DNA of 64,000 bases, taken from positions 6,335 through 70,334 of the forward strand of contig CAYOOO010000005.1 in NCBI GenBank assembly GCA_964405655.1, read 5' to 3'. The notes under the pieces were generated by a model. It ran no database searches, had not been told where the DNA came from, and worked only from the letters and a program-made list of their open reading frames with translations. This document shows, piece after piece, positions 9,954-53,531 of the stretch. This stretch comes from an uncultured Gammaproteobacteria bacterium. GTDB lineage: Bacteria > Patescibacteriota > Microgenomatia > Daviesbacterales > UBA10151. Made by a program: the position numbers and the translations under genes. The stretch's first letter is position 1. Every line of letters begins with the position of its first letter.

Positions 9954-10045
9954 AAGTAGAAAAGAAGTGTCTGGTTAAAATACCAGTCTTAGACTAACTT
10001 TGTCAATTCACAAGATATTGGGGGGTAGACAGACCAGAACTCATG

Positions 10046-10118
10046 TCCAAGGCCCTGGAGTCGAACCAGGCTAAACAGGTTTTACAGACCTGCGCATCAA
10101 CCGCTCTGCCAGCCTTGG
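10046..10118 (-). tRNA. tRNA-Tyr (anticodon GUA). It is type I (short 5-nt variable loop) with a C1:G72 acceptor pair and A73; no encoded CCA.
   Basis: Reverse complement: CCAAGGC-TG-GCAGAGCGGTTGATGC-G-CAGGT-CTGTAAA-ACCTG-TTTAG-CCTGG-TTCGACT-CCAGG-GCCTTGG-A. This folds as a cloverleaf with GTA at positions 34-36. Confidence 0.8.
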
Positions 10119-15444: not shown

Positions 15445-17766
15445 CTAATTTTTTCCTAGCAAGAAGTTAATCACTCTCTGAAGCCAGCTGACTTGAGTGC
15501 TTGCTCCTGCTACACCGCCAGCGTCACTGCTAGGAGGTGGGGGCGGAGGGGGCTCTGGTGGAGGCGGGGGAGGGGTTTCATAGCTTGGAGTTCCATAAGA
15601 AGGGGTAGCATAACTCGGTGTACCGTAACTTGGGGTAGCATAACTTGGACTCGGATAAGAATAAGATGGTGATGGGTATGAGTAAGATCCAGGGGTGGGA
15701 TAACTATAGGTACCTGAGGGAGTGTAATAGCTAGGTGAAGGATAAGAATAGCTACCAGAAGGTGTTGGATAAGAATAACCAGGTGTTGGGTAGGAGTAGC
15801 CTGATGAAGGAGTTAAGTAGCTTTCTGGTGTGTAGTAAGTTGGGGTGGTATAACTACTACCTGGTGGAGGAGTGTAGTAGGATGGTGTTACATAATTTCC
15901 TCCAGAAGGAGTGTAGTAGGTCGGGGAGGTGTAGGTACTGCCAGGAGGAGGAGTGTAATAGCTAGGTGTATTATAAACCGCTGGTGTATAGTAGCTTGGG
16001 GTGGTGTAATTTGAACCAGGAGGTGGGGTATAGTAGGTCGGTGTGGTATATGAACCTGTTACATTGATTGGAGTATAGTAGGTTGGTGTGGTATAAGGCG
16101 GTGGCGTGGTGTAATTAGGTGTGGTATAACTCGATCCCGGAGGTGGAGTATAGTAATAGGGTGTAGTGTACCTTGGTGGGGTGTAGTAAGTCGGGGTGGT
16201 GTAATTTGAGCCAAGAGGAGGGGTATAGTAGGAAGGCGTGTTATATGAAGGTGTTGGGTAATTTCCTTGCGGAGTTGGATAGTAGGTTCCTGGTGTATAG
16301 TAAGTTGGGGTGGTATAACTACTACCTGGTGGAGGAGTGTAATAAGAAGGAGTCAAGTAGATACCTGGCGTATAGTAGCTTGGGGTGGTGTAATTTGATC
16401 CCGGAGGTGGAGTGTAGTAGACAGGCGTGACATAAAAACTTGTTGCGGGCGGGGTATAGTAAACAGAATCTTTAGGCGGAGTATAGTAAGTACCTGGGAC
16501 AAAATTATCTAGGGGTCTTGGAGATTTAGCATCAAATCCCTGACATTTGCCTGGATTGTCCTTACAAAAGTCATAACAAGCGCCTGGTGAGTCACAATTC
16601 CCCATCTCTTTAACTGGCTCCATTTTGACAGGAGTCCCGGGTGTGTAATATATAGAGGGTAAATATTTATCTGTTGGTCTCGGGCCACTTCCATCAAAGC
16701 CTCCACATTTACCTGGGTTTTCTTTACAATAGTCATAACAGGCTCCAGGGGTCTTACAATTTCCCATATCAGGTCTAGGTTGAAAGTATGCACCACCTGC
16801 TGTTGGGTTAATCCCTGGTGGCGGGCTGTCTTGACAGCTTGATCCACTCCAATATTTACCTCCTTGGGCACAGGATTGAGCTACTTGTGTCTTATCATTC
16901 GGTGTGCAAGCACCTCCAGGTCCAAAATTCTGTCCAGCCGGGCAAGCTACCGGAACATAGGCTCCATTGGAACCTGGTGCATAGCTCCTACAATCAGCTG
17001 GGTTTTGTTCACAATGCGATCGGCAGGATTCAGGGTTATTACATCCTCCTGGGCCTTGGAATTGTTGGCCTGGTGGAGCAAAAGCCTGACATTTACTAAA
17101 GTTATTTGGATCAGCGCAGAAGTTTTTACAAGTAGCATCTGAATTACATCCTCCTGGGCCCTCTTTAACCTCTCCCCCTAAAAGCCCAACTGACTTAGCA
17201 AACTGGTCACATTTTGCAGCATTGGCCTGGTTATCACAAAAGCTGCTACAGCTGGCAGCTGAATCACAACCTAAGATTTTCTTGGCTTGATCTAAAAACT
17301 GTGGTTTATCTGGTTCTTGGACATAACCTCCAATAATCTCTTCTTCTTTAGCAAAACCATCACATTTATCTTTATTTTCAGCTTTTGAGCAGAAGTCTAA
17401 ACACTCTTCCTTATCTTTACAACCTAAACCATCTTGAGTTTTCTTCCAAAATTCATCATCAGCAGCTAAAACTTTATCCTGTTTATAAAAACCCTTTTTC
17501 TTGGCATAGTCTGCACAGGAGGAAAAGTTGACTGGATCATCGCAATAAGCTAAACATTCTCCTTTGTTCTCGCAGTTGCCCAAATCTTTGATGGGAAAGA
17601 CTACAGCGTTATCTTGTCCACCTGGCGCAGGTGAGGCAGTTGGGCTTGGGGCAGGAGAAGGGGATGTTGTTTGAGCTTTTGCTTGAGTACTAAAAAAGAA
17701 GACTAGAATTGAAGCTGCCAGTAGTATTGCTAACTTATTTAGATTTCCTCTAATTAAATTGATCAT
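15445..17766 (-). CDS. Giant secreted Cys-rich repeat protein (773 aa), copy 2. Its N-terminal 4-Cys repeats are homologous to copy 1. The C-terminal ~300 aa are tandem Tyr/Thr/Pro-rich repeats (TPSYYTPPPGSNYTTPTYYTP), then poly-Pro and a conserved hydrophobic C-terminus.
   Basis: Signal peptide; PIKDLGNCENKGECLAYCDDPVNFSSCADYAKKKGFY aligns with the copy-1 PIAELGNC... block. The start overlaps the small gene stop (ATGA). Confidence 0.6.
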   Translation of the reverse strand: MINLIRGNLNKLAILLAASILVFFFSTQAKAQTTSPSPAPSPTASPAPGGQDNAVVFPIKDLGNCENKGECLAYCDDPVNFSSCADYAKKKGFYKQDKVLAADDEFWKKTQDGLGCKDKEECLDFCSKAENKDKCDGFAKEEEIIGGYVQEPDKPQFLDQAKKILGCDSAASCSSFCDNQANAAKCDQFAKSVGLLGGEVKEGPGGCNSDATCKNFCADPNNFSKCQAFAPPGQQFQGPGGCNNPESCRSHCEQNPADCRSYAPGSNGAYVPVACPAGQNFGPGGACTPNDKTQVAQSCAQGGKYWSGSSCQDSPPPGINPTAGGAYFQPRPDMGNCKTPGACYDYCKENPGKCGGFDGSGPRPTDKYLPSIYYTPGTPVKMEPVKEMGNCDSPGACYDFCKDNPGKCQGFDAKSPRPLDNFVPGTYYTPPKDSVYYTPPATSFYVTPVYYTPPPGSNYTTPSYYTPGIYLTPSYYTPPPGSSYTTPTYYTPGTYYPTPQGNYPTPSYNTPSYYTPPLGSNYTTPTYYTPPRYTTPYYYTPPPGSSYTTPNYTTPPPYTTPTYYTPINVTGSYTTPTYYTPPPGSNYTTPSYYTPAVYNTPSYYTPPPGSTYTSPTYYTPSGGNYVTPSYYTPPPGSSYTTPTYYTPESYLTPSSGYSYPTPGYSYPTPSGSYSYPSPSYYTPSGTYSYPTPGSYSYPSPSYSYPSPSYATPSYGTPSYATPSYGTPSYETPPPPPPEPPPPPPPSSDAGGVAGASTQVSWLQRVINFLLGKN
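15546..16500 (-). repeat. In-frame tandem DNA repeats of ~30-60 bp encoding the YYTPPPGS(N/S)YTTP(S/T)YYTP units inside the 773-aa gene.
   Basis: Visible periodicity of ggtggagg/agtgtagtag/ccaggtgg units on the + strand. Confidence 0.6.
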
Positions 17767-18008
17767 TTTTGTTCAAAAGTAAGAAACGGACTCTTATATT
17801 CATCAAAAGGATTAACATATTGGTTTTCCTTTTTGAAAGGATTTTTATACTCTGTTTTAACCGCTACTTTTGGCTCTTGCTTGACTAGGTTAGAGAAACC
17901 GGGGATTTTAAATGAACCTTTAGAGTAAAAGAGGAATAAACCGACGCCAAGGATAACAACAATTAACACAAGCAGTAAAAGGTGGGCGATTCCTTTTTGA
18001 TTAATCAT
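17763..18008 (-). CDS. Small PilX_N-like NPF protein (81 aa), copy 2.
   Basis: MINQKGIAHLLLLVLIVVILGVGLFLF ... EYKNPFKKENQYVNPFDEYKSPF; paralog of 12464..12718. Confidence 0.5.
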   Translation of the reverse strand: MINQKGIAHLLLLVLIVVILGVGLFLFYSKGSFKIPGFSNLVKQEPKVAVKTEYKNPFKKENQYVNPFDEYKSPFLTFEQK

Positions 18009-19728: not shown

Positions 19729-21234
19729 ATGAGTGGGGATCGATCGAATGAGTTACCAAGAGTCAGCCGAAGAGAATTGGTAAGTCCAACTAGAAGGACT
19801 AATACTCTAGCAACTCGACCAAATATTCTAACTCCATCTCCAGACAGAGTAAGACAAAGACAGGCAAGAAGAGAAAAGATTAAACAAGAACAAAGACGGG
19901 CTCTGCTGGGAATTGCAGGGGCAGCAACTCTAGCTGCAACATTTGCAGGAGCAAAACCTGCAATGGAGGCAGCCCAAAATATCGGAAGGGCAATAACTGG
20001 GGCAAAACCCATGGATCAGCAACCTGTTCAAGCTATCTTACATCCAGTTGATCCCACTGGTGAAAGGACAGCTCCAGCAACTGGAGTTCAAGCTGCAGAA
20101 AGACCCAGACTGCAATCACTTTTAGACAATATCCTAACTACCCCCTTAAATACCCCCCAAAGATTTGATGCAGAAAAAGCTTATGCAGATTCTGCCCAAA
20201 GCTTAAGTGAGATTAACCAAGGATTATGGACAATAACTGATTGGAACTTAAGAATTGGGCTCTTAGACAAAAGATATGCCTTAAGAGATGAGAATAACCC
20301 AAATCATCAACCTCTAACAAAAGAGCAAGCTGATTGGGCAGATAAAGAGTATATCCATCCTGAAACTTTAGCAATTACTATTCAAGCCAGAGAACTGGCT
20401 CAAAAAATTTTAGCTGAATATATTTCTAAAAGAGTTGGCGGATGGTCCAGTTTTAGGCCAGATTTGGCAGCTAAAGTTAAATCTGGTGAGCTTCCACCAG
20501 ATTTTTTTAATAAACTAAGCCCCGGAGATGTCCTAATTAATCCCGGCGGAATGGCTAGGATGGTGGTTTGGGAAACAGGCCAGGGACTACCTAAAGACAA
20601 ACCTCAGGGGGCAGTCTCCTCAATCTTGAGCAGAATCAAGAATAAAATTTCTCCGGAGAGATTTCTGATGTACGGCTTTGTGAACATTGGTTTTACCCCG
20701 GCAAGGTCTCAAATTGATGCAAATACTTTCCTGACTAAAAGATATGACAACAAGGATGCTCTATCATATTTGGCTGGTGAGCTTTCAAAAGAGACAGGTT
20801 TGAATTTCACAGAAAATAATTTACCAGGTTCCTCAAAGGTAGAAATTAAACCGGGCGATAATGACAATGCAATTGCTGAAAAACAACTTAGAAGTACTGT
20901 CTCAGGGGGAGCAGTTGGGCTACAGATGATGCCTGAGGTTATAGCAAATTATCAGTCTAACCCAATAATCCATGAAGCATTTAAAAGAAACGGCCTAACT
21001 ATTAATCCTTACGACCCAGTCTCAGCTACAACTCTAGGCTATCTATTCTTAGCCCAATCTGTTGCTACATCAGGAGGGAATTTCCAGTATGGCTTCCTAA
21101 ATAATACTCATCCTGATCTGAAAGGAAAAGAGACAATGGTTAAAGCTTTTAAGAAAGACTCACTTTTAACCTGGAATAGATTTGATAATCAAGTCAGAGA
21201 AGTCCTGGATTCAGAAGAAAGTTTTAGAATATGA
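19729..21234 (+). CDS. Membrane-anchored protein with a C-terminal lytic-transglycosylase (SLT)-like motif.
   Basis: TM helix (ALLGIAGAATLAATFAGA); EKQLRSTVSGGAVGLQMMPE resembles the SLT E-S...GA-GLMQ-MP signature. Confidence 0.45.
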   Translation: MSGDRSNELPRVSRRELVSPTRRTNTLATRPNILTPSPDRVRQRQARREKIKQEQRRALLGIAGAATLAATFAGAKPAMEAAQNIGRAITGAKPMDQQPVQAILHPVDPTGERTAPATGVQAAERPRLQSLLDNILTTPLNTPQRFDAEKAYADSAQSLSEINQGLWTITDWNLRIGLLDKRYALRDENNPNHQPLTKEQADWADKEYIHPETLAITIQARELAQKILAEYISKRVGGWSSFRPDLAAKVKSGELPPDFFNKLSPGDVLINPGGMARMVVWETGQGLPKDKPQGAVSSILSRIKNKISPERFLMYGFVNIGFTPARSQIDANTFLTKRYDNKDALSYLAGELSKETGLNFTENNLPGSSKVEIKPGDNDNAIAEKQLRSTVSGGAVGLQMMPEVIANYQSNPIIHEAFKRNGLTINPYDPVSATTLGYLFLAQSVATSGGNFQYGFLNNTHPDLKGKETMVKAFKKDSLLTWNRFDNQVREVLDSEESFRI

Positions 21235-22841: not shown

Positions 22842-23324
22842 ATGTCACTAGAATCACAAACAAATAGAAACTATCCTGGATATGTTCAACTAATTCGGGA
22901 TTTGTTTATTACCCGAAAAGGGCTAATCTCAAACTTAACGCCTACTGAGTTGTTAGCTCCTGATAAAAAAGAGGCTTATTTACAACACGTTATAAAAAGT
23001 CCCCAAGAGCTAGGTATGTTGGCAGATGCTTTAGATGAGGCATTTAGAGAATCCAAACAAGCACAGCTCTTGTCTGATCGGGAAGAAGCAGTCCTAAGAA
23101 TGCGCTACAGTCTAGACGATCCTGCCCTAGAAGGCAGAACTTTAAGCGAAGTTGCTGCTCAGACCCCCAGATTAACCACTACCACCAAAAGATCAATAGG
23201 CCAACAAGGTTTATCAGTGGAAAGAACCAGGACTATTATTGAGGAAGCACTGGCTAAAATTAGACATTACAGCAGACAAAAACCAATCTTTGGGTTTACA
23301 GCCAACACTGATTTTTACTTATGA
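22842..23324 (+). CDS. Sigma-70 region-4-like HTH protein (160 aa).
   Basis: LSDREEAVLRMRY...TLSEVAAQ...GLSVERTRTIIEEALAKIR matches the sigma region 4 pattern. Confidence 0.45.
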   Translation: MSLESQTNRNYPGYVQLIRDLFITRKGLISNLTPTELLAPDKKEAYLQHVIKSPQELGMLADALDEAFRESKQAQLLSDREEAVLRMRYSLDDPALEGRTLSEVAAQTPRLTTTTKRSIGQQGLSVERTRTIIEEALAKIRHYSRQKPIFGFTANTDFYL

Positions 23325-24352
23325 GTTTAACCAGAGAAACAGAGGTTTACTTAAACCATACTCAAAGATTCTTATCCGAAAGAAAGGGAATACCCAGAGC
23401 GATAAGAAGATCCAGACAACGACCGGAAGTTTTAAACCAGGCATTGGAGGATTTAGAACTAGCTGTGCTTCACCTCAATGGCTTTATCAACTCATCCGAT
23501 AAACCCTTAGGTCTAAGACAAGCATTGTTACCGTTTTCTACAATAATCAAAACTGAGCTTGAAGAAGGAACAAGCTTCTACTTTCTCAGAGAGGGGAAAA
23601 ACTTACCATCTCCAAAAAATGAAGCCGGCAGAAAAACTCCTCAAGCTATCGAAGAGGCTAGAGCGATTTTCAAGCAAGCGGATAAGTTTATGTATTGGGG
23701 AGATTTAAATGTCAGTGGAGGCTGGAAATTTCACAGACAGCTTAAAGATCTGTCCCAGCTTGTTAATTCTTTTGCTATTGAAATGTATGGACTTTTGGCA
23801 GCATATAGATCTTTGCCTCTTTGGAATAAAAGCAGCACAGTAGTTTTAGCATTAGAGGAGATGCTAGCTGTCCATGGAACCAATACTAAAATGTATCAGG
23901 CAATCAAAGGCTGGTACAGTTTGGATGAAGGTTTTTCACCAATTCTAGTCGGGATGATTGAAGGTAGGGTAGATGTTCCTTTTAGGTTTGGTCAGGCAAT
24001 CAGAGTCACTCCTAGCTTTGTAGTATTTGACGGATATAAACCTGGTCTTGAGGGAAAAGCAGAAGGGCAAAGGTGGTATATCTCTCCAAGAACTGATGCA
24101 GCAGAACAGATGCTAATTGAGGCTGCTAAACTACATAGAATTGGTCAAGGTTTAACTCAACCTCATCAAGTTTTGGCTCCAATCAGTCAAACCAGAACTT
24201 TACTCAGAACAGATAGGACTTCAGATAATTTAAGAGTTTTAATTGGTGGTGCAGTGGATAAACCTAAAGAATGGGAAGATGCTGCTCCAACCCCAGATAG
24301 AATGGAACAGTGCTTAAGCTTACACCCAGATTTCTACAGCTTTTATGATTAA
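23321..24352 (+). CDS. Hypothetical protein (343 aa).
   Basis: ORF with a 4-nt overlap with the upstream gene; no recognisable motifs. Confidence 0.35.
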   Translation: MSLTRETEVYLNHTQRFLSERKGIPRAIRRSRQRPEVLNQALEDLELAVLHLNGFINSSDKPLGLRQALLPFSTIIKTELEEGTSFYFLREGKNLPSPKNEAGRKTPQAIEEARAIFKQADKFMYWGDLNVSGGWKFHRQLKDLSQLVNSFAIEMYGLLAAYRSLPLWNKSSTVVLALEEMLAVHGTNTKMYQAIKGWYSLDEGFSPILVGMIEGRVDVPFRFGQAIRVTPSFVVFDGYKPGLEGKAEGQRWYISPRTDAAEQMLIEAAKLHRIGQGLTQPHQVLAPISQTRTLLRTDRTSDNLRVLIGGAVDKPKEWEDAAPTPDRMEQCLSLHPDFYSFYD

Positions 24353-39151: not shown

Positions 39152-39709
39152 TTAGTTGTTCCAATTATAGTATCTTTTAAATATTAGCTTTTCGCCCCGC
39201 TCAATCTCATTAACAGAAGCAATGGTCACAAAATCAGAGATTTCTAAAAAATGGCAAAGGAAATCTATCTCTTTCTTACAGGGATAGGCTGAGGCAAATA
39301 CACTATCTTGTAATCTGACAAATCCTAATTGCAAAAGTTTTCTCCTAAAGACATCTCTAGCATTCTTCTTGATTTCAGGTATATCAAAAATAACAAGTCT
39401 CCATTTACCATCGCGTCTTTTAGTCTTTAGCGTAATATTTTCAAAATCATATTCTAAGAGTCTTCTTTTTCCTTTCTCAGTAATTTCAATTACAGTTTCA
39501 TTACTATTTGATGTTACTGATATCATTTCTTGCTTTTCTAGTCTTTTAATAACTCTTCCTAAATCTCTTTTATTAACATTTTTCCATGCTTTTATAGCTA
39601 CTCCTAAAGCGATTGGTAGGTTAGGAAATAATAGAGACCCAATAACCACACTACCTATTCCAATCATCTGAAGAACCTCTTTTGTAGAAATCTTTGCTGA
39701 TGCCACCAT
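39152..39709 (-). CDS. PaaX-family-like transcriptional regulator.
   Basis: N-terminal wHTH-like segment and GKWRLVIFDIPE...RRKLLQLGFVRLQDSVF, which matches the PaaX C-domain pattern. Confidence 0.4.
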   Translation of the reverse strand: MVASAKISTKEVLQMIGIGSVVIGSLLFPNLPIALGVAIKAWKNVNKRDLGRVIKRLEKQEMISVTSNSNETVIEITEKGKRRLLEYDFENITLKTKRRDGKWRLVIFDIPEIKKNARDVFRRKLLQLGFVRLQDSVFASAYPCKKEIDFLCHFLEISDFVTIASVNEIERGEKLIFKRYYNWNN

Positions 39710-39838: not shown

Positions 39839-40546
39839 TTACTCAAACGGATCTTTTTTACCTTTTGGTCCACTAGCTACTGTCACAGTAGTAATGGGCG
39901 TAGACCTTTGGGCACTCTTGATTTTAGTTAGGAGATTAACATCTTTCTCATCAAAGGCTGGTAGAGGTTGTTCAACTTCACCAATACTTTTAGGTAGCTC
40001 CTCAAAATAAGCAAGCATTGACATTGATGCTTGGACATCATTAGATTTTCTCAAACCTATAACTTCGATCTTATCCAGTTTTAGAATTCTGGGAATTTTA
40101 GCTAGTTGGGAAATAAAATTTTTAACAGTATCTGTATTACCAGCTATTTCCATTTTGATTTGGAAGCTTTGGATTTTACCAGTATTTGCCGTCACATTTG
40201 AAAAAGAAAGGGCGTTGAGTTTTAAGCGGTTGTTAGAAACCAAAAAGAGTAGTTGCCCAACAGCCCCAGTCACATCTTGGTTATCTGGAAGTGCAGCTAA
40301 AGCGACATCAATATTTTCTTTGTAAACATTTTGGTCAATTTGCTGGAGGCTATTTAATTTATCTGACAGGATAGTTTGCTTTTGTTTTGTCTCCTCTAAA
40401 GTTTTATTGACAGTTAAATATCTTATGAATTGAGGAATAACTACAAAGATTAATAAAATCAAACAAACAAGAACTGATCCAACAGGCAGAATAAATATTC
40501 TATATTTCTCAGGGACTATATTTTTAAAAGGTAGCTTCTCTAGCAT
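39839..40546 (-). CDS. pilO: Type IV pilus assembly protein PilO-like.
   Basis: Single N-terminal TM plus coiled coil; position after pilM-pilN. Confidence 0.55.
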   Translation of the reverse strand: MLEKLPFKNIVPEKYRIFILPVGSVLVCLILLIFVVIPQFIRYLTVNKTLEETKQKQTILSDKLNSLQQIDQNVYKENIDVALAALPDNQDVTGAVGQLLFLVSNNRLKLNALSFSNVTANTGKIQSFQIKMEIAGNTDTVKNFISQLAKIPRILKLDKIEVIGLRKSNDVQASMSMLAYFEELPKSIGEVEQPLPAFDEKDVNLLTKIKSAQRSTPITTVTVASGPKGKKDPFE

Positions 40547-40553
40547 AATATCT

Positions 40554-41117
40554 TTACTGAGTAAAACTGGCTTTTGATAAGACTACTGTTAACTCAAATC
40601 TGATTACACTAGTAGGGCTTCTATTAAGATTCTCTACCTTAGTAGAAACTATTTTACCCTGATGCTCAGATGGGTTTGTTAACTTGTTAAAAAAAGTCTG
40701 GAGCGATTTGGTGCTAGTAGTTTCACCTGTCAGACTGATAATATCTTTTTTACTGTTATTGAAACTAATTAGAATCATATCTTTGGGCATAAGTTCAGTT
40801 ACCAAGTTAAATGACTGAGATTGCAAAATTCCTGCTGAGGTTAGAGATTTAATCCCATCAAGTCTATCTTTTAAGACAAAGGTTAAACCTTCATGCCTTT
40901 TATAAGTAGCAATCTTTTCCTTAATCTGAGAAATCTGACTTTCAGTATTTCTGATCGAAAAGTTATCACTTAAACTCAAAAACAACACAATTGCAGCAAC
41001 TGCAACAGTAAATACTAAAAGTCCAATACTGATTTGCAAAACCAGTGATTTTTTGGCTTCTTCTCTTTTGGCCAGTGTTAAATCTATCGGTAGTAAATTA
41101 ATATTTATCTGGTTCAT
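40554..41117 (-). CDS. pilN: Type IV pilus assembly protein PilN-like.
   Basis: Single TM after a short N-terminus; overlaps pilM. Confidence 0.6.
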   Translation of the reverse strand: MNQININLLPIDLTLAKREEAKKSLVLQISIGLLVFTVAVAAIVLFLSLSDNFSIRNTESQISQIKEKIATYKRHEGLTFVLKDRLDGIKSLTSAGILQSQSFNLVTELMPKDMILISFNNSKKDIISLTGETTSTKSLQTFFNKLTNPSEHQGKIVSTKVENLNRSPTSVIRFELTVVLSKASFTQ

Positions 41118-42151
41118 TCTTCTTTCATCCCCAGGCCTACGGCCACTGCATAAAAAGGTCCTTCAGTCGCAAGCTTATTTTTAACACTTTGGTCAACGTT
41201 AACTGCCGTCCAAGGATCTGCCTCTTGAACCTCCAAGCCTAAAGAATCAGCAAAATATTTAACCATCCCAGGCAATTGGGCTCCACCTCCTGTTAAAATT
41301 ATTCTTTTAACAGAAAGTTGTCTGTTTTGAGTTTCATGAGCTTGAATAACTCTTTTAGTTTCAGCGATTATCACATCTACTATTGGTTTGAGAGACTGAA
41401 AGAGCTTACCTTCAAGCTGATCTTCCAAAAGTCCGTAAACCTTTTTATATTCCTCTGCCTGGATCAGCTCAAAATTAAAACTTTGAGCTATGGCCCGGGT
41501 CAGCGCAACACCGCCAGTAGAAATTGATCTTGTCAAAAGAATTAAATTTTCTGAGATAACTGCAAAGTCCGTGGTGGTTGCACCAAGTTGGACAATTAAA
41601 GAAGTAGGGGAGTAAGGATTAGTACCTACCAGAGATCTCGTCACTGCAATTAGTTCAGTCTCAATTGAAATAGGTTTTAACTCAGCCATTTGCATCAATT
41701 TAAGGTATTTGTTAATCAATATTTTGGGAGTAGCTACTACAAAAACTACGGTCCTACTCTTTGGTCCTTTTTCGCTCGAGCGGTAGATGACTTGATAATT
41801 TAAGTTAACATCTTGAACAGGCATTGGTACAAATTCCTCAGCTGCGTAAGGGATGGCTTGGGCCAACTCTTCATTTGTTAAATAAGGTAGGTCATAAACA
41901 ACCCTTGTAAAGATCTTTGATTCTGGAAGGGCGATATAAACCTCTCGGGTTGGAGCGCTAATTTCGTTCATTAAATTTTTAATTGAAATAGCAACTGCTT
42001 CTAAATCCAAATCTGCGTCTGAAGCAATGCCCGGTTGGGGAGAAGCAATATGACCCAAAGATAAAAGCTTGGGTGGTTTTTGTTTGTGAGATAAAACTAC
42101 TACTTTGATTGATGAAAAACCTATATCAAGACCAACTTTTTCTTGGGGCAT
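41114..42151 (-). CDS. pilM: Type IV pilus assembly ATPase-like PilM (actin fold).
   Basis: GLDIGFSSIKVVVL N-terminus; ILTGGGAQLPGM. Confidence 0.8.
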   Translation of the reverse strand: MPQEKVGLDIGFSSIKVVVLSHKQKPPKLLSLGHIASPQPGIASDADLDLEAVAISIKNLMNEISAPTREVYIALPESKIFTRVVYDLPYLTNEELAQAIPYAAEEFVPMPVQDVNLNYQVIYRSSEKGPKSRTVVFVVATPKILINKYLKLMQMAELKPISIETELIAVTRSLVGTNPYSPTSLIVQLGATTTDFAVISENLILLTRSISTGGVALTRAIAQSFNFELIQAEEYKKVYGLLEDQLEGKLFQSLKPIVDVIIAETKRVIQAHETQNRQLSVKRIILTGGGAQLPGMVKYFADSLGLEVQEADPWTAVNVDQSVKNKLATEGPFYAVAVGLGMKEE

Positions 42152-42236
42152 GTTTACAGTATAAAATATGTGCCGGCTTTTTTGGTAGTAGAAACTTCAT
42201 CAGCAAATAAAAGGATGACCATAAAAAGCCGAAAAT

Positions 42237-44051
42237 CTACTTACTTTGATAAGAACCCTTGATAACAGAATAGGAGCCTGAAGGTCCTGAGGTGAAAAAC
42301 GATGAAGCTAGTCCTTGATCATAATTAACCGTGACACTGTTCTCCAGTTCTAACTCCCAACCTGTTATCTCAGTCAAGGTATTGCTGTTTGAGATATGAA
42401 TACTGCCTAAATTTGAATAAAGTACGCCCTGGTTACCACTATTTGAAACAGTAATAGCTTTTCTATCTAGAGGATCATCCCTTGAGTTAAACTCAGAAAT
42501 TGCCACCAAGTAGCTGCCAGGAGTACCACTGCCCAGTAATTTATTACTATTTTGCAAATTTATAAAATTATCAACAATAATTGAGCCACTAGCAGAGCCA
42601 TATGAAGAATCAAGTTTAAACTCAGTTGAATTGGTCATTGTCAAATCTCCGGTAATCCAAATTGGAGTTTTAACAGTTTCTTTACAGGTATTAGCTAAAG
42701 ATATGCTACCTGTATATTTCCCAGGACCCCAGACAGTTTGATTATTGCAATCTGGAGTAGGCAAGGATCCAGCATCTTGGGCTTGTTGTTTCCACTCATC
42801 AATATTAGCCTGGGATATGGGCATAGTAAGGACAACAGGGTCAGTACTGCCAGGATGACAATGAGTGTTATTTGTACAATTTTGACCAGAGACAGTATTT
42901 GAGGATTCGACTTGATAATAAGCATCTTTGCCAATTGTTAACCCAGTCAGTGTATTAGCATGAGCATCTCCGGTAATTTGGGGGCTGTTTGTACCAGTTA
43001 TAGAAGTTGCCACTCCTCCCATAAAGGTTTTAAAACCCAAATCCCCATTGATAGTATTCCAAACAGGTGAGGAGGCCTGCCAATTTGGCGACCATTTAGC
43101 CAGACATGGTGGGGTAGAGGAGCAAGTATATCCTTGGGTTGTATCAGAAGACCAAGACCAATAATTGCTTGAATTAGCTGTTGTATCTAACATTATCCAA
43201 TAATAGGTATTGGCAGACAGCTGAGGAGAGGTGGTAAAACCTACCTCGACAAAAGAATACTGGGAAGTCACTAAATTAGCAGAAAGTGTCCCTGAGGCTT
43301 TGACATCATTTTTGTTTGGTTTACCAGAGCTGTCCCCTAAAATTCTAACAGTTATGTTTGAGGGAGAACCAAATTTCTTTAATTTCAAAGCAACTTTATT
43401 GATGACTGCTGTCTGGGTTGGTTTAAAGCTTTGGGCTATATCCAACTCAGCACCGGAGTTTTTACCAAATACAAAATCCCCACAATTTGGATCTGTACAT
43501 TCCCACATCTGATCAGGGGTAGGTTGAACTCCACCTGCAACATAAGCATCACCATTTATTTTGGCGCTATTAGACATAGTTATACTTCCATTTGAATAGA
43601 CCGAACCATTAACAGTGGCGCTATTTTCCATCTCCAGTCCACCATCACCAACCTGCACTCCATAATTAAAGGAAACACCAACTCCTTTGGAAACTGTCAA
43701 CTCAATTGTTTTTTTGTTTTTGGCATTAGCTTTATTAGGATAGTAACCAGTGGCTTGGATTTTTTTTGTTCCTGCATCAACACTGGTGATATTTAAGGTG
43801 AATGTCCCCCCTCCAATTGCTACTTCGGTATCAGGATTGGGATTAAAACTACCTCCTGAGGCATTGAGTGCTGCAACTGCTTTATCAACCCCTGCTTCTG
43901 CCAAATTAATTGCCTGCAGCGTTCCTGTTGAGTATTTAGAACTCTGAAAGACTGTCAGAGAGCCTGAAAGCAGGGCAACTGTTAGCACTAAAACTAGTGT
44001 TAAAATTATAAAAGCTATAATCACCAGCTGACCTCTTTGTCTGTTAATCAT
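42237..44051 (-). CDS. Large PilX_N-domain pilus-associated protein (604 aa), a candidate tip or adhesin component.
   Basis: MINRQRGQLVIIAFIILTLVLVL N-terminus; a long Ser/Thr/Asn/Gly-rich beta domain. Confidence 0.5.
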   Translation of the reverse strand: MINRQRGQLVIIAFIILTLVLVLTVALLSGSLTVFQSSKYSTGTLQAINLAEAGVDKAVAALNASGGSFNPNPDTEVAIGGGTFTLNITSVDAGTKKIQATGYYPNKANAKNKKTIELTVSKGVGVSFNYGVQVGDGGLEMENSATVNGSVYSNGSITMSNSAKINGDAYVAGGVQPTPDQMWECTDPNCGDFVFGKNSGAELDIAQSFKPTQTAVINKVALKLKKFGSPSNITVRILGDSSGKPNKNDVKASGTLSANLVTSQYSFVEVGFTTSPQLSANTYYWIMLDTTANSSNYWSWSSDTTQGYTCSSTPPCLAKWSPNWQASSPVWNTINGDLGFKTFMGGVATSITGTNSPQITGDAHANTLTGLTIGKDAYYQVESSNTVSGQNCTNNTHCHPGSTDPVVLTMPISQANIDEWKQQAQDAGSLPTPDCNNQTVWGPGKYTGSISLANTCKETVKTPIWITGDLTMTNSTEFKLDSSYGSASGSIIVDNFINLQNSNKLLGSGTPGSYLVAISEFNSRDDPLDRKAITVSNSGNQGVLYSNLGSIHISNSNTLTEITGWELELENSVTVNYDQGLASSFFTSGPSGSYSVIKGSYQSK

Positions 44052-44613
44052 TACGCAAATTTACTTGACCACTGACGCTACTTTCTTGGGTTTCTTGGTT
44101 GACTGTCCGGGCAACTTTGGCAATAAAGTTAACTGAGCTTGCAGCTTGTGGGCTGACAATATTGGAATTTTGATCATAGTAGCTGAAGGTCAGTGAAGAA
44201 AGCTGGGTTGTCAGCAGCCTATTTTCACTCTGCCTGCTACTTAATGCATCAGGGAAAATTTTTTTCCTTAAAAGTTTAGCATTTTGGCTATCTTGAGTGA
44301 TCACTAAGTAGTCATAGGTATTAGCTATGACTGAGCCTGAGGCATTTACAGAAGGCAGGGTTAAAACTAGCGTCTGGGGACCACTAGTATAAGTAGTTAC
44401 ACCACCTACAAAACTTACTGCAACAGACGAAGCATTTCTGATAGAGTCATAGATCTGGGAAGAAATTTGGTTGGTATCCAATCCTTGCTCAACCTGAGCA
44501 CTTTCTCTTAAAAAAAATGCATTGTTTTGGACAAAAATTCTAACCAGTATTATTCCTACTAGCGAGGCAACCCCAATATAAATAAGTACCTCAAGTAAAC
44601 TGATCCCTTTCAC
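44044..44613 (-). CDS. Minor pilin-like protein (class III signal MKG|ISLLEV).
   Basis: G-1/E+5 prepilin motif plus a hydrophobic helix. Confidence 0.6.
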   Translation of the reverse strand: MKGISLLEVLIYIGVASLVGIILVRIFVQNNAFFLRESAQVEQGLDTNQISSQIYDSIRNASSVAVSFVGGVTTYTSGPQTLVLTLPSVNASGSVIANTYDYLVITQDSQNAKLLRKKIFPDALSSRQSENRLLTTQLSSLTFSYYDQNSNIVSPQAASSVNFIAKVARTVNQETQESSVSGQVNLRND

Positions 44614-45032
44614 TTAAGACCTCCATCTGCTATTAAGGTAGTTATCTCCACCTTTTTGGTTTCGCTTTTTTCCTGCCAGGTAACCTTGGCAGTAACTTTT
44701 TTAGCAGCTTCAGAAAGGCTACAAACATCAACTGGACAGTCAGTAATAATATAAACAGCCTGACCTTGCGGAAGAGAACTTATTCTTAAGTCATTGATTT
44801 GAGGTGGGGGGTCGGAGGTATTCGCTAGGTTTGTATAGGTCTGCCTTCTTAAATCCTCAATCTTTTTAACTGCAATATCCTTGGCAACAGATTCTTTTCG
44901 GCTGTTTCCGATCCAATTAAAAGCTGAAGGCAGGTTAGACAACACGACAATAGCAGCCCCGGCAATCAGAGTTACTATCAAAATCTCAACTAAAGAGAAG
45001 CCTTTTTGGTTATCGGGCAGTACTGGACTCAT
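44610..45032 (-). CDS. Minor pilin-like protein (QKG|FSLVEILIV).
   Basis: Prepilin cleavage motif with E+5. Confidence 0.65.
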   Translation of the reverse strand: MSPVLPDNQKGFSLVEILIVTLIAGAAIVVLSNLPSAFNWIGNSRKESVAKDIAVKKIEDLRRQTYTNLANTSDPPPQINDLRISSLPQGQAVYIITDCPVDVCSLSEAAKKVTAKVTWQEKSETKKVEITTLIADGGLK

Positions 45033-45943
45033 TTCTCAATATTGACAGTGGAGAAGATGGCAAAATCGAATATCTGGGGAACAACATTTTCTTGTCTGAA
45101 TACTTTAACAGTTCTTTGGCTTTGTCCAGACTTACCAGTCGAGGTAAATACTTTTGCCTGTACTGGCAATGTGCAAAGCAATGCACCACAGCTTCCCACA
45201 GGCTTGATTGCAATTGGGTGATCCTCACCAGAATTAGCATAAAATAACCTGGTTCTAATTAAGACAGGAGTACCGTATGTATTGATATTGTTAATTGTTG
45301 CCATACATCTAAATAAACGATCAGTCACAGTAGTATTAGGGGAATCTGAGGTATTAATCTGATCAGGTAAGGGCGCATTACAAGCCGGGTCTGAAAAGCC
45401 ATTATTGATTCTTCTGGTAGAAATTGGATCAAAATAAAACTTGTTGGAAACAAACGCAGAGCCTGATAGGGAAATTAGGTTAACCTCTATGGCCGGTGTA
45501 TTAATGGCATTTATATCTGATCTTAAATCTTTATCTCCCCAATACACTCTTAAACTGGTGCCACCGTATAAATTAGCATCAACTGCACCTGGAGAAGAAG
45601 GATTGGATAACCAAAAATGACCAACTTCTTCTCTGGTCAATTCAGGCAACTCTAAAGCCTGACCAGTACCTGGTAGGTTAAAGGTAATCTTAACGTTAAA
45701 GGCAGAGTTATTATCAAGTTGATAATTGTTAATATCTGAAAGTGAACCTTGACTTTCCAAAGAGATCGCTCTTTCAATGCCTGCTTCCGCTGCAGAGAAG
45801 GCCCGGGTTGATTGGTCTGTTTGAGTTGAGGTGGTTACATCTGTCAAAGACCGCTGGATAACTGCCAAACCAATTGCCAAAATAACTAACATTGCTAGTA
45901 GTAAAACAATCACCGCTTGTCCAACCTCTTTATTTGTTCTCAT
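45029..45943 (-). CDS. PilX-like minor pilin/assembly protein.
   Basis: VGQAVIVLLLAMLVILAIGLAV, a PilX_N-type N-terminus. Confidence 0.55.
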   Translation of the reverse strand: MRTNKEVGQAVIVLLLAMLVILAIGLAVIQRSLTDVTTSTQTDQSTRAFSAAEAGIERAISLESQGSLSDINNYQLDNNSAFNVKITFNLPGTGQALELPELTREEVGHFWLSNPSSPGAVDANLYGGTSLRVYWGDKDLRSDINAINTPAIEVNLISLSGSAFVSNKFYFDPISTRRINNGFSDPACNAPLPDQINTSDSPNTTVTDRLFRCMATINNINTYGTPVLIRTRLFYANSGEDHPIAIKPVGSCGALLCTLPVQAKVFTSTGKSGQSQRTVKVFRQENVVPQIFDFAIFSTVNIEK

Positions 45944-45983
45944 ATACTTAATTATTGATTCTTTTCCAACTAATATTCAACAT

Positions 45984-46733
45984 TTATCTTAGTTCGATAG
46001 TAGTTTGAAACTCAATGGTGTTATCAGACCCGACTTTATCTTCAAAACTGCTACCAGCATTTATAGCAGGTGATAATCTGAAATTTATTACCACAATATC
46101 CTTAAATCCTTGCTGTTTATAGACTTTGAAGTATGGATCTGAAATACCAGGATTAGACGTACTATTGGGTACAGAGACACCTCTGCCTGTGTCGCGATCA
46201 GTCAAGTAAGTAGGCGTCTCATAACTACCTACTGAAGGAGAACATAAGATTAGCAAAGATGCTTCATCACTAGGGTTTGATACAACTGGTTCTTCTTCAA
46301 CTATAAAACCATTTGAGGAGGCTGTTGGATCAACAAACCTGAATCTTATGTATTTACTCCCCTGGACACCCACGCTAGAGGAAGGAGAGGCTTTTGTTCT
46401 AATTGTTATGATCTTAGCTGGAGTTGAATCTGTCGGGCAGATTACCCCGTCAGCCTGTCTGATTGCCCGGTCAATCACATTTAAAGCTGATTGACCATTT
46501 TGTTTGATAGTTCCTATAAGCTGACTCTTGTCACTACCTCGGAAAGTTCGGGATAAAATACCGCTTAGAATTACTCCAATAGTGGCAAAGATAATCACAA
46601 CCAGTAGCGTCTCAATTAATGTAAATCCATTTTTAACTTGGACAGATTTCGACAAAGCTTGATCTGTTACAAAAGTCTTTCTACGAAATCGTCCATTCAT
46701 AACTCTTATGCTCCCATTATTAATAGTTGGCAA
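45984..46733 (-). CDS. Minor pilin-like protein (KNG|FTLIETLLVV).
   Basis: Prepilin motif. Confidence 0.6.
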   Translation of the reverse strand: MPTINNGSIRVMNGRFRRKTFVTDQALSKSVQVKNGFTLIETLLVVIIFATIGVILSGILSRTFRGSDKSQLIGTIKQNGQSALNVIDRAIRQADGVICPTDSTPAKIITIRTKASPSSSVGVQGSKYIRFRFVDPTASSNGFIVEEEPVVSNPSDEASLLILCSPSVGSYETPTYLTDRDTGRGVSVPNSTSNPGISDPYFKVYKQQGFKDIVVINFRLSPAINAGSSFEDKVGSDNTIEFQTTIELR

Positions 46734-47253
46734 GTATTGTTACTAGTTCTGAGCTGTGTTTGCCTGAAACATCTGACCAAAAAACCCTTGAGAAAACTTG
46801 CTTTTGTTTGGTGCCGTCATCTATATCTTTAATAACTATCTCCCTAGTGAACCCATCACTAATTTGTTCAAGAGAACTACTTTCTAACAGCCAAAACGGG
46901 CTATCAGGAGCTAGCGCTACCGGACAAGAGCCGATGCTTGCTTGGGTCAAAACAAATTTACAGCCTACCGGACAGATATTGGAAGTCGACCAAAGCTCGC
47001 TAAATTTAGCCACTGAGGTCACACTAGGCTTACAAACTGCATAGTCACGACCTTTGATCGCCCTGACTCTTTCCAAGCCTTCCTGAGCATATTTGGTGGC
47101 CTTAACTTGATCTTTAGAAAAGCGGCTATTTTTAAGGCTTAAAATCGTAGTTAAAGTTAGGGCTGTAACTACTATCACTATCAAACCAATAGTTACAGTA
47201 ATCTCAAGCAGGGACTGACCCTTTTGGCTAAATCTATCTTTAGTTTTCTGCAT
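46720..47253 (-). CDS. Pseudopilin-like protein (KG|QSLLEITV).
   Basis: G-1, E+5, hydrophobic helix. Confidence 0.55.
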   Translation of the reverse strand: MQKTKDRFSQKGQSLLEITVTIGLIVIVVTALTLTTILSLKNSRFSKDQVKATKYAQEGLERVRAIKGRDYAVCKPSVTSVAKFSELWSTSNICPVGCKFVLTQASIGSCPVALAPDSPFWLLESSSLEQISDGFTREIVIKDIDDGTKQKQVFSRVFWSDVSGKHSSELVTILANY

Positions 47254-47827
47254 TAATTACCCCTCCTTTATTTATTGTAATGGTTTTTGTTTGAGAAAGA
47301 GCATTGGTATTTTGCAAAGTTATGGTACAGTTTTGAGTTGAGCCGGATCTTTCGAAAACAACTTCAGTACCGCAATCAAAAGTTTGGACTGTTATCTTAT
47401 TATCCAGCTGATATTGCTGTTTTAAAATATCTGCGTCAGAATTGTCATTATTAACACAGGTTGCCCTTAACTGGTAAACACCTGTGGAAATACTTAAAGA
47501 GACTTTCCAGTTTTTGGTATGAGTATCTTTCCTAGCTGTTGTATCAGGGTCAGTATCAGACGGACAGGAAATTGAGGTTTGGGCATTTGATTGGGCTTGT
47601 TTTAAAACTTGAGCCAGTTTAGAAGTCTCGTTTTGAAGCAAAATATCTTCATTGAATTTCTTAATGTTGGGAATAGCAACAACAGTTACTATAGCTAAAA
47701 TTGCAATAGCTACCAAAATCTCCACCAGTGTAAAACCACTTTGGCCTGGACCAATTTGGTCATCATTCAAGTTGTTACAGTAGTTCCTACTACCAAATTG
47801 TCCGCTATATAACTTAAGTTTTCCCAT
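47240..47827 (-). CDS. Minor pilin-like protein (QSG|FTLVEILVAIAI).
   Basis: Prepilin motif. Confidence 0.6.
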   Translation of the reverse strand: MGKLKLYSGQFGSRNYCNNLNDDQIGPGQSGFTLVEILVAIAILAIVTVVAIPNIKKFNEDILLQNETSKLAQVLKQAQSNAQTSISCPSDTDPDTTARKDTHTKNWKVSLSISTGVYQLRATCVNNDNSDADILKQQYQLDNKITVQTFDCGTEVVFERSGSTQNCTITLQNTNALSQTKTITINKGGVINAEN

Positions 47828-47829
47828 AT

Positions 47830-47996
47830 TTTTATAAGCTTCCGCGTAATGAAAGTACGCGGTTTTCTATGATTTTAAGCTTAAACCGCTTCGTGACCCA
47901 TTAGCCGCGGAAGCTTGAAACCTTACTTCGCCTACATCCCCGGTCTAATAGACCGGGGTTTTGGCGAAGCGGTTATAATAATCAACTCTTCATTGA
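47830..47996. ncRNA. Structured GC-rich intergenic element between two pilin genes. It has nested long-range pairings (AAGCTTCCGCG/CGCGGAAGCTT; AACCGCTTCG/CGAAGCGGTT), a competing local hairpin (CCGCGTA-ATGAAAG-TACGCGG) and a terminator-like hairpin (CCCCGGTCTaatAGACCGGGG, then TTTT) oriented on the + strand. Candidate sRNA or cis-regulatory RNA.
   Basis: Pairings read directly from the sequence. The GC content is far above the surroundings. Confidence 0.3.
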
Positions 47997-48506
47997 CTAG
48001 AGCGGACTAAGCTTTAAATTGAAACTGCTATTTCCACAGACGTTGTTGCAGTCAGAATCCTGGGAATACTGGCCCTCTAATTTGGCACAAAGAACATAGT
48101 ACTGGCACCTACCAACCCCAGATAAGTTATTGTCACATGCTGTAACTAAATCATTTTTAGTAAAAGCTTTATAACAGTAAGCAGGGTTAGTAGAAACTGG
48201 ATCAGAAGGAATTTTAGAGATGTAAGTTCGATCAGCAGTGCAACTGGGTACAGTCGGATCGATACCGTCACAGTTGGTAAAAGTTCCACTGGCAGGAAAG
48301 GTATAAACTGGGGAAGGGAAATAACCCAGATCTGCATAATAGTACTGCAAGGCTGCTTGAATTGTTTTTAAGTCAGACTGCCTTTGGGTGTCTCTGGCGC
48401 TTCGCTGTATCCCAACAGAGGAGGTAATTATTACTCCAAAAACAATCCCAATTATGGCAATTGACACCAGCAGTTCAATCAGGGTGAAACCTAAGTTTTT
48501 GGGCAT
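47997..48506 (-). CDS. Type IV pilin (MPKNLG|FTLIELLVSIAI).
   Basis: Short leader, G-1, F+1, E+5. Confidence 0.75.
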   Translation of the reverse strand: MPKNLGFTLIELLVSIAIIGIVFGVIITSSVGIQRSARDTQRQSDLKTIQAALQYYYADLGYFPSPVYTFPASGTFTNCDGIDPTVPSCTADRTYISKIPSDPVSTNPAYCYKAFTKNDLVTACDNNLSGVGRCQYYVLCAKLEGQYSQDSDCNNVCGNSSFNLKLSPL

Positions 48507-48558
48507 TAAAACTATTTTGTCACTAATTTGGGTTCAAAACAAGAGAGTCAAGAAAGAA

Positions 48559-49068
48559 TTATCGCAAGCTTCTTTTGCAATGAATCTTGGTATTACTATT
48601 TTCCAAAAGAGCACAGGCTTTAAAGTAAGTCGAACCATCTGTAGGAGTTGTGCTAGAAACCTTCTCATAACCAGTAGGACAAGCGGTCTTACTCCATTCA
48701 CTAACATCAGGATCTCCTACATTAGAGTCTGTTGTTATGCAATAAGGATAACCTACTGGATCTATAGCATTAGTACTACTATCTCCAGGGAAAAGATTTT
48801 TTTCAAAATCAGAGGTTACTAAAGGCTGATAACCTGAGTTTGTCCTCTTAATCTCCAGTGCCTTAACAATTGAATTAACCTCAAGCATCCTTTTAGAATC
48901 CCTACCATTTCTTTGGGTTGTTGAATAGACAGAGTAAGCTGTTACAGAAAGAATAGCTATAATAGAAATAGCTATCATTAATTCTACTAGTGTGAATCCC
49001 TGGTCAGGTATATTAGTCCTTAAAGTAGACATATAATCATTATTTAGCTTTTTTGAATAACATTTCAA
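48559..49068 (-). CDS. Type IV pilin (..DQG|FTLVELMIAI). The start is probably the internal MSTL.
   Basis: Prepilin motif. Confidence 0.7.
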   Translation of the reverse strand: MKCYSKKLNNDYMSTLRTNIPDQGFTLVELMIAISIIAILSVTAYSVYSTTQRNGRDSKRMLEVNSIVKALEIKRTNSGYQPLVTSDFEKNLFPGDSSTNAIDPVGYPYCITTDSNVGDPDVSEWSKTACPTGYEKVSSTTPTDGSTYFKACALLENSNTKIHCKRSLR

Positions 49069-49126
49069 CAGTTAAACTTAAAGCTAGATTATTTACTTAA
49101 ACAGTGAAAGTAAAAAAGTGGTGAGA

Positions 49127-49645: not shown

Positions 49646-49700
49646 TTATATATTTACTATTCCATGTTGAAAAACAGTTGTCAATAGTCAATTTAGAGGA

Positions 49701-50603: not shown

Positions 50604-50610
50604 TTCCTAA

Positions 50611-51159: not shown

Positions 51160-51243
51160 GTTTTTATCACCTCCTCTAAAAGCTAAACTAATAATTAATT
51201 GTAGACACAACTAATCTACAACAGTCAAGTACCACTTAAAGAC

Positions 51244-52455: not shown

Positions 52456-52462
52456 CTTTTAA

Positions 52463-53524: not shown

Positions 53525-53531
53525 ACATTAG

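Follow-up and report, generated by a model that had tools for sequence, protein, structure and literature searches.

Tyrosine-strict Y-x-T-P repeats in a secreted protein family of the Microgenomates: a candidate envelope stalk within a lineage-restricted gene module

Gram-positive adhesin stalks, the proline/threonine (PT) linkers of actinobacterial glycoside hydrolases and the proline-rich rod of TonB share one plan, a low-complexity Pro-rich segment set between a folded domain and a C-terminal element, with a length that varies from strain to strain between conserved flanks. In this article, I discuss a segment built on the same plan, an array of Y-x-T-P units (hereafter YxTP) in a 773-residue protein encoded on a 64,000-nucleotide stretch (the window) of contig CAYOOO010000005.1, which belongs to a Candidatus Daviesbacteria metagenome-assembled genome (MAG). 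The protein has a secretion signal and a low-complexity, Pro-rich segment that is length-variable between a conserved head and tail; unlike the Pro/Thr-rich linkers, however, the array is 21-22% Tyr in a strict Y-x-T/S-P register, has no LPXTG motif and represents a spacer type that is coupled to dedicated neighbour genes. The array is genuine and selectively maintained; its architecture, conservation, length variation, strict Tyr and gene linkage are observed directly, whereas an extended conformation, the topology, the anchoring and any chemistry on Tyr are inferred. My verdict is that it is a real and conserved form of low-complexity surface stalk, hitherto undescribed in bacteria, lying in a gene module specific to the Candidate Phyla Radiation (CPR). 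The reading that I favour, at a probability of about 50%, is that the array forms the variable-length middle of a secreted Microgenomates family and serves as an extended stalk of the envelope, in which the tyrosines have some necessary role.

CPR bacteria, which make up a large share of bacterial diversity, are believed to live attached to other cells; to my knowledge, the molecules with which they build envelopes and attachments are almost entirely undescribed. Large, Cys-rich, strain-variable extracellular proteins with a proposed role in attachment have been reported from CPR bacteria of the Peribacteria (PMC4736985), and hypothetical, non-cytoplasmic families enriched in Microgenomates have been catalogued (bioRxiv 10.1101/335083). 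The proteins in these two studies resemble the 773-residue family in being secreted, Cys-rich, strain-variable and lineage-restricted; neither study describes the family, its YxTP array or C-terminal VQG tail, or the partner proteins (NPF and solenoid) introduced below. A literature search for tyrosine-rich proteins of Patescibacteria returned no paper, and Cys-rich extracellular proteins of CPR bacteria are treated in general terms only.

The region first singled out (window positions 15546-16500) corresponds to residues 423-741, and the approximately 300 residues of Tyr/Thr/Pro tandem repeats claimed for it by the original prediction are indeed there: the predicted consensus, in the form P[PL]GS[NST]YT[TS]P[STN]Y[YT]TP, is present in seven copies, and self-identity of the array peaks at lags of 25 (z=8.3) and 5 (z=6.6) residues against composition-preserving shuffles. 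The elementary unit is the pentapeptide-like Y-x-T-P, arranged in a super-repeat of approximately 25 residues, PPGS(N/S)YTTP-(S/T)YYTP-xxYxTP-SYYTP. Residues 423-745 (323 residues) hold 43 Y-x-T-P units, where composition alone would give about 4 by a rough estimate, and the count of Y-x-[T/S]-P units over the whole spacer is 47. The middle section is as rich in Tyr, Pro and hydroxyl groups as had been predicted (residues 426-745 are 27% P, 22% Y, 21% T, 14% S and 6% G), and it ends, again as predicted, in PPPPPPEPPPPPPP at residues 732-745 (window 15532-15573). Charge is almost absent, with one Lys, one Arg, one Asp and three Glu in the 323 residues, as is Cys altogether, and the YxTP spacers of homologues are likewise almost uncharged and Cys-free.

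One position of the array hardly tolerates a change of residue. In 60 spacers totalling 17,773 residues, Tyr occupies the place three residues before Pro at 97.5% of 2,590 x-x-x-[T/S]-P sites; Phe falls outside the eight commonest residues there, though in the heads it is about as frequent as Tyr. The Tyr is not filler: selection appears to act on the phenolic hydroxyl itself, which seems to be required. The residue before Pro is Thr in 84% of units and Ser in 16%.

Such a composition invites comparison with eukaryotic repeat proteins, and the original prediction had likened the array to plant extensins and mussel foot proteins, a likeness that survives for composition and period and fails for family membership. 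Extensins (Ser-Hyp4, where Hyp is hydroxyproline, with YXY), plant proline-rich proteins (PRPs; (PPVYK)n) and mussel foot protein 1 ((AKPSYPPTYK)n) are, like the array, secreted tandem repeats of 5-10-residue units of Pro, Tyr and hydroxy amino acids, and the PRPs share its pentapeptide period. All three, however, are Lys-rich and basic, unlike the array with its single Lys and single Arg; residues 423-745 contain no SP{3,} run of the extensin kind, with eight TPPP+ runs instead, and there is no Pfam extensin match, no PSYPPTYK and no decapeptide. Of the motifs associated with Tyr cross-links, the same residues contain seven YxY and no VYK, although the presence of such motifs says nothing on cross-linking. 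Resilin (GGRPSDSYGAPGGGN), the GYYPTSPQQ repeat of high-molecular-weight glutenin, FUS-type [G/S]Y[G/S] sequences and the YSPTSPS repeat of the RNA polymerase II C-terminal domain (CTD) also place Tyr regularly in a Pro/Ser/Thr context, and the C-terminal part of the array (SYATPSYGTPSYATPSYGTPSYETP) is similar to the SYGAP motif of resilin and to the CTD motif. The resilin, glutenin and FUS-type repeats are nevertheless rich in Gly or Gln, unlike the array (6% Gly, a single Gln), which has no SYGAP, only two SYG[AT]P, no CTD heptads (its periods being 5 and 25), and a context that is extracellular and bacterial. Membership in the extensin, CTD, glutenin or other repeat families was rejected, the repeat region alone giving no Pfam or PDB match even at an expectation value (E) of 10 or below; the resemblance to extensins and mussel foot protein 1 is, as far as the sequences tell, one of compositional analogy and not homology. 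No other part of the 773-residue protein was matched either, by Pfam (whole protein, E<=0.01) or by NCBIfam (E<=1).

Comparable proteins do occur elsewhere. A search of 5.8 billion proteins returned 99 homologues, all annotated 'hypothetical', and 29 further loci came from scanning GTDB species genomes; homologues with a named source are few and nearly all labelled as Microgenomates lineages (Daviesbacteria, Roizmanbacteria, Gottesmanbacteria and Chisholmbacteria), to which the family appears to be specific. At least 59 homologues carry a YxTP spacer with 17-25% Tyr, other members have a Cys-rich or a PT-, PQ- or PA-rich spacer in its place and one (P0224, 335 residues) has no spacer, so that the spacer is an interchangeable part of a family in which head and tail are kept. 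The YxTP-type genes form one orthologous clade with seven head modules. Among 45 complete YxTP-type homologues, the head measures 389-431 residues and the spacer anything from 142 to 452 residues with 21-66 units, and a spacer at locus L019 reaches 578 residues and 85 units. Closer relatives tell the same story, since P0025 (828 residues) and P0227 (842 residues) are 94% identical and differ by three indels (5, 14 and 5 residues), each of which lies within the array. These two fall in one 90%-identity cluster with P0226 and P0228, both of which are frameshifted within the YxTP array and read on in another frame, either through assembly or sequencing error or as real inactivating variants.

Length variation by whole units, both between near-identical strains and across species, therefore stands as predicted, but the slipped-strand route proposed for it does not. 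The DNA repeats thought to underlie the array amount, in Tandem Repeats Finder, to a single array of three 15-nucleotide copies (15602-15648), together with a longest exact repeat of 44 nucleotides at 15833 and 16298, 465 nucleotides apart; otherwise the copies are only 60-85% identical. The 14 [ST]YYTP units are written in 14 different 15-mers, and across the seven copies of the 14-residue motif, synonymous differences affect 40% of codons and non-synonymous differences 16%. This pattern suggests that the peptide is under purifying selection while its DNA copies have drifted synonymously, and because the copies are so scrambled, slipped-strand variation is unlikely, although there are two recent segmental duplications, at 98% and 93% nucleotide identity.

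The same data bear on whether the array is simply an artefact, low-complexity sequence that is non-coding or wrongly assembled. In favour of this, the gene is not spanned by Logan assemblies of the same strain, frameshifts fall inside the repeat in P0226 and P0228 (which belong to a different strain cluster), and the array contains the 44-nucleotide exact repeat. Yet the frame stays open for 2.3 kb through the repeat and into a conserved, in-frame C-terminal tail, the same architecture recurs at 16 other loci from many studies, and the peptide is conserved despite synonymous divergence, for which reasons I regard an artefact as very improbable indeed.

How, then, might such a segment be used? 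The favoured stalk would work within a family plan of signal peptide, disulfide-stabilised Cys4 helical-hairpin head, spacer and 21-residue VQG tail. The array would form a long, uncharged, Pro-stiffened stalk, presumably of polyproline-II type, that may hold the head off the cell, across the wall or S-layer, while retention of the 773-residue protein at the membrane would fall to the VQG tail and to an NPF membrane protein that is translationally coupled; interaction with, or modification by, the Cys/His solenoid and cupredoxin proteins encoded nearby would be the likeliest reason for the Tyr requirement. This is the best-supported reading and, by analogy, would follow the principle by which linkers in the surface proteins of other bacteria span the wall. 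Several observations weigh against it. Because a passive spacer could do without strict Tyr, a stalk alone is an incomplete explanation, and it leaves the private linkage to His/Cys-rich and cupredoxin proteins unexplained; that linkage is itself confounded by phylogeny, the YxTP genes being one clade. Approximately 340 residues, fully extended, would span approximately 100 nm, far beyond a cell wall. The hydrophobic stretch of the tail is only some 11-13 residues long and contains a conserved D/E/Q, which makes it too short for a normal transmembrane helix. Finally, the copy number of the array stands without independent confirmation, as the Logan contigs of the same strain end before or inside the head. 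Should the array be merely a stalk, it would still illustrate neatly how a spacer that is constrained in composition and variable in length is stabilised, in its DNA, through synonymous scrambling.

Membrane anchoring by the tail is accordingly best treated as conjecture on the sequence evidence. The tail consensus, (P)VQG[VA]STxRx[LF][LFW][QDE]x[IL][WL][DN]F[LF]x[GR][KR], covers 21 residues, with an invariant Gly approximately 19-21 residues from the end followed by a short amphipathic helix and a basic residue, and the motif is present in 72 of 101 family sequences, the remainder being mostly incomplete. In its invariant-Gly small-residue motif, hydrophobic helix, terminal basic residues, position approximately 21 residues from the end and preceding Pro-rich linker, it recalls the tripartite sorting signals (LPXTG/sortase, PEP-CTERM/exosortase and GlyGly-CTERM/rhombosortase). 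It differs from them in that its hydrophobic part is short and amphipathic, it occurs on one family only and no sortase-like gene is linked to it. Searches of NCBIfam (E<=1) matched no described CTERM model, neither LPXTG nor any other described sorting motif was present, and no sortase was seen linked to the VQG-tail genes. A hidden Markov model (HMM) of the tail matched only Cys4-family genes in the window and at loci L001-L006, and against 1.84 billion representative proteins it gave six matches, three to family members (P0070, P0221 and P0224) and three to spurious repeats; a word-index search with the tail alignment returned no matches. A role as a general sorting signal was therefore rejected, the tail being confined to one family in every search.

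In the neighbourhood of the gene, the genes on the minus strand follow one another in the order 394-residue protein, NPF protein, 773-residue YxTP protein, 511-residue protein, 357-residue protein, second NPF protein and 753-residue paralogue (Table 1). For 39 of 41 family genes, the gene immediately upstream encodes a single-pass membrane protein of approximately 80 residues with three conserved NPF motifs, usually with a 4-nucleotide stop/start overlap. The 394-, 511- and 357-residue proteins have in common a Cys/His-rich, all-alpha domain, for which Pfam and NCBIfam hold no model, and the solenoid proteins begin with N-terminal membrane helices. The 394-residue protein is unusually conserved (60-74% identity among orthologues across the Microgenomates), and its structural model gave weak ARM/HEAT-like PDB matches and nothing stronger in Foldseek. 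An alignment of the solenoids that includes both window paralogues has H107, H111, H139, H173, H177, E218 and ten Cys invariant, with an in-register ladder formed by H107/H139/H173/N213 at C+2 and H111/H177 at C+6 and continued as C-x-x-N in later repeats; this ladder may represent either a metal site or a groove that binds peptides. In an HMM census, all 17 loci with a YxTP-type gene had a solenoid gene, usually two solenoids and one cupredoxin fusion, as against 1 of 20 loci with non-YxTP members only (Fisher exact p ~1e-9, computed by hand on loci that are not independent). The locus defines a conserved four-component surface module restricted to Microgenomates and composed of the NPF mini-protein, the Cys4-head/spacer/VQG-tail protein, the Cys/His solenoids and a Cys-less cupredoxin, of which only the cupredoxin domain appears, by sequence, to match a described family. 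The strict Tyr and the linkage to putative metal proteins together yield a testable hypothesis, namely Tyr-directed extracellular chemistry or repeat-peptide docking.

The chemical version holds that array Tyr are oxidatively cross-linked through dityrosine or dihydroxyphenylalanine (DOPA)-type bonds by the co-encoded metal proteins, giving a cured envelope layer or holdfast, for which extensin, plant PRP, resilin, mussel glue and the Bacillus spore coat would be the analogues. The exclusion of Phe from the Tyr position, the seven YxY motifs and the tie between cupredoxin-solenoid and solenoid genes and YxTP loci all speak for it, and so do the partners themselves. Against PDB profiles, the cupredoxin domain of the 511-residue protein matches amicyanin and nitrite reductase (E 1e-5 to 1e-4), and its invariant H71, H74, H105, D106, H107 and H111 lie in the loops that bind copper in those proteins; its FHDHLxPH sequence has the H-x-H-x3-H spacing of the multicopper-oxidase motif HCHxxxH, a resemblance without statistical support, and in the solenoids successive helices bear HxxxH, H, HxxxH and E, all invariant. 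YxTP locus L010 (1-5700 and 11059-13201) lies amid genes of redox and metal function, which encode a thioredoxin-like protein, a DsbD transmembrane domain (DsbD_TM), a plastocyanin-like Copper-bind protein, DUF3179, a glutaredoxin, a Zip transporter and an Fe/Mn superoxide dismutase. The original prediction had pointed to tyrosinase-like genes as something to seek, and it holds to the extent that Cys/His-rich solenoids, one of them fused to a cupredoxin, accompany the array, but not as regards the enzyme families: the solenoid and cupredoxin neighbours match no tyrosinase, laccase, peroxidase or hemerythrin family in Pfam or NCBIfam, no prolyl hydroxylase or peroxidase was identified, and the window contains no match to a tyrosinase family. 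Aligned with amicyanin, the type-1 ligand set is replaced (Cys by Asp, His by Asn/Tyr, Met by Leu/Ile), which leaves the domain without the site through which known oxidases transfer electrons; laccase and ascorbate oxidase were matched without significance (E 0.05-0.3), and the solenoid fold resembles generic ARM/HEAT repeats only. The array also has no Lys of the mussel or PRP kind, and many Microgenomates are inferred anaerobic fermenters, in which O2-dependent chemistry is less obvious. On balance I consider cross-linking unlikely, if the foremost of the alternatives to a stalk.

A bolder form of the proposal would make the array the dedicated substrate of a CPR-specific, metal-dependent Tyr-modifying system, comprising the solenoids and the Cys-less, His-rich cupredoxin, and cured into a cross-linked envelope layer or a holdfast for attachment to a host; it is the least probable of the functional proposals discussed here. 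If true, it would mean an independent bacterial invention of the chemistry of extensin, resilin and mussel glue, with enzymes of a previously unknown fold family.

The same gene linkage could instead reflect docking, with the YxTP units bound, one per repeat, by the membrane-anchored, ARM/HEAT-like Cys/His alpha-solenoids, thereby fastening or organising the protein on the surface; a candidate ligand for the solenoid ectodomains would be a peptide of the form (S/T)YYTPPPGSNYTTP. The near-exclusive occurrence of solenoid genes at YxTP-type loci and the N-terminal membrane anchors of the solenoids are consistent with this, as is the His/Asn ladder, which in my reading of the alignment stands in register at C+2/C+3 on successive repeats, and Foldseek returned weak matches to importin-alpha, Vac8, karyopherin-beta2 with a proline-tyrosine nuclear localisation signal (PY-NLS) and a designed (PLP)n-peptide binder. 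All of these structural matches, however, have E>0.01 and a template-modelling (TM) score of approximately 0.2, the ladder is equally well explained as a metal site, and the phylogenetic confounding noted above applies to the association here too. I would put docking a little above the dedicated Tyr-modifying system and below simple cross-linking, which is to say rather improbable.

Between cross-linking and docking I would place mucin-like O-glycosylation, a doubtful proposition in which the Thr/Ser, and possibly Tyr, hydroxyls would be heavily glycosylated outside the cell to give a hydrated, protease-resistant brush. Precedents are the actinobacterial PT linkers, BclA and S-layer proteins glycosylated on Tyr or Thr, and every unit of the array ends in Thr-Pro or Ser-Pro. 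At locus L006 (5542-9278), an NPF/family pair is immediately preceded on its own strand by three GT2 genes, and GT-C-like membrane proteins (a weak PMT_2 match, E 0.012) adjoin the YxTP gene at L009 and L004. But L006 is a syntenic Daviesbacteria locus with a PA-rich, non-YxTP spacer, the PMT_2 match falls below the Pfam threshold, and the GT-C-like proteins occur in two loci only and have no homologue in the window. The nearby glycosyltransferases that the original prediction suggested looking for were not found in the 64-kb window, nor at most YxTP loci, and O-glycosylation leaves the strictness of Tyr unexplained unless Tyr is the acceptor. A 501-residue neighbour (19729..21234) was considered as a GT-C protein and rejected; it is also unrelated to the L004 membrane protein.

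To return to the protein that would carry the stalk, it is secreted, to judge by a Sec-type signal and 32 Cys in repeated modules. AlphaFold2 (AF2) places a helix at residues 3-27 of the signal region and then a low-confidence segment at residues 30-51, and a Pro/Ser/Ala linker joins signal and head. The head Cys are mostly invariant in an alignment of 54 family sequences, and the AF2 model of the head (mean predicted local distance difference test, pLDDT, 81) consists of helical hairpins without a fold match in the PDB. An identical 773-residue protein is also called on NCBI contig JACOXF010000009.1 (MAG GCA_016176395.1), and the gene next to it carries the annotation Candidatus Daviesbacteria. 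Scans for promoters and terminators at the locus did no better than shuffled sequence.

Table 1. Parts of the 773-residue gene and its cluster, in window coordinates (aa, amino acids; nt, nucleotides)
Feature	Coordinates	Strand	Remarks
Whole gene, 773 aa	15445..17766	-	Signal peptide, Cys4-module head, YxTP spacer, poly-Pro, VQG-type tail
Sec-type signal peptide, aa 1-31, ...TQAKA/Q (slash, cleavage site)	17674..17766	-	n-h-c region read from sequence; putative cleavage site
Disulfide-rich head, aa 52-420	16507..17613	-	Seven C-x5-C-x3-C-x6-8-C modules and one 4-Cys variant block
YxTP array, aa 423-731	15574..16500	-	About 47 Y-x-[T/S]-P units, 25-residue super-repeat, nearly uncharged
PPPPPPEPPPPPPP, aa 732-745	15532..15573	-	Lineage-specific; rare among homologues
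C-terminal tail GGVAGASTQVSWLQRVINFLLGKN, aa 746-773	15448..15531	-	Family 'VQG' element
NPF mini-protein, 81 aa, single-pass membrane	17763..18008	-	Y-x-NPF...QY(V/I)NPF...K(S/N)PF; stop overlaps 773-aa start by 4 nt
Membrane-anchored Cys/His-rich alpha-solenoid, 394 aa	18070..19254	-	AF2 pLDDT 86.7, all-alpha
Cupredoxin-solenoid fusion (Asp in place of the type-1 Cys), 511 aa	13869..15404	-	Pfam Cupredoxin_1 E 7e-10
Third Cys/His solenoid family member, 357 aa	12795..13868	-	Alignment
Second NPF small membrane protein, 84 aa	12464..12718	-	Upstream of 753-aa paralogue
Paralogue, 753 aa	10197..12458	-	Five Cys4 modules; Cys-rich GGGTCDWSSGSCYC and Thr/Pro spacer replacing YxTP; same VQG tail

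Some further observations concern individual members of the cluster. The start of the NPF mini-protein, M-x-N-Q-K-G-(F/I)-(A/V)-x-L, bears a vague likeness to a prepilin signal without Glu+5. The spacer of the 753-residue paralogue, which has its own NPF gene, contains approximately five copies of GGGTCDWSSGSCYC(K/R)GY, each preceded by SRDSQEA(T/G)C; over this stretch the NCBI gene list of the contig holds only genes of 84, 74 and 46 residues, and the long open reading frame (ORF) may lack annotation there. A tRNA-Tyr(GTA) gene (10045-10118, minus strand) lies 79 nucleotides downstream of the cluster, and tRNA-Tyr genes occur near family genes at 7 of 33 other loci (L006, L011, L019, L024, L028, L036 and L037), of both YxTP and non-YxTP types. 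A functional link to the Tyr-rich product was rejected because the tRNA gene also adjoins non-YxTP members, and the adjacency is probably conserved synteny. Many 'binchicken' MAG records that contain the module (L011, L012, L015, L016, L018 and others) are titled 'uncultured Gammaproteobacteria' or 'Pseudomonadales', evidently placeholder or wrong labels.

The rest of the window is occupied by housekeeping genes and a type IV pilus cluster. The latter (39839-55235, minus strand) is a complete cluster of the pilus/competence type with PilM/N/O, a PilD peptidase (A24), PilC (T2SSF), PilT-like and PilB-like ATPases and at least seven N-methyl pilin-like genes, and it is flanked by an IS200-like Y1 transposase (55359-56033, minus strand) and a protein with a PaaX/Cas2-like domain (39152-39709, minus strand). 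Three ORFs have no Pfam match, at 23321-24352 (plus strand, 343 residues), 42237-44051 (minus strand, 604 residues) and 19729-21234 (plus strand, the 501-residue protein mentioned above); in the product of the last, a single hydrophobic segment comes after an N-terminus rich in Arg, Pro and Thr.

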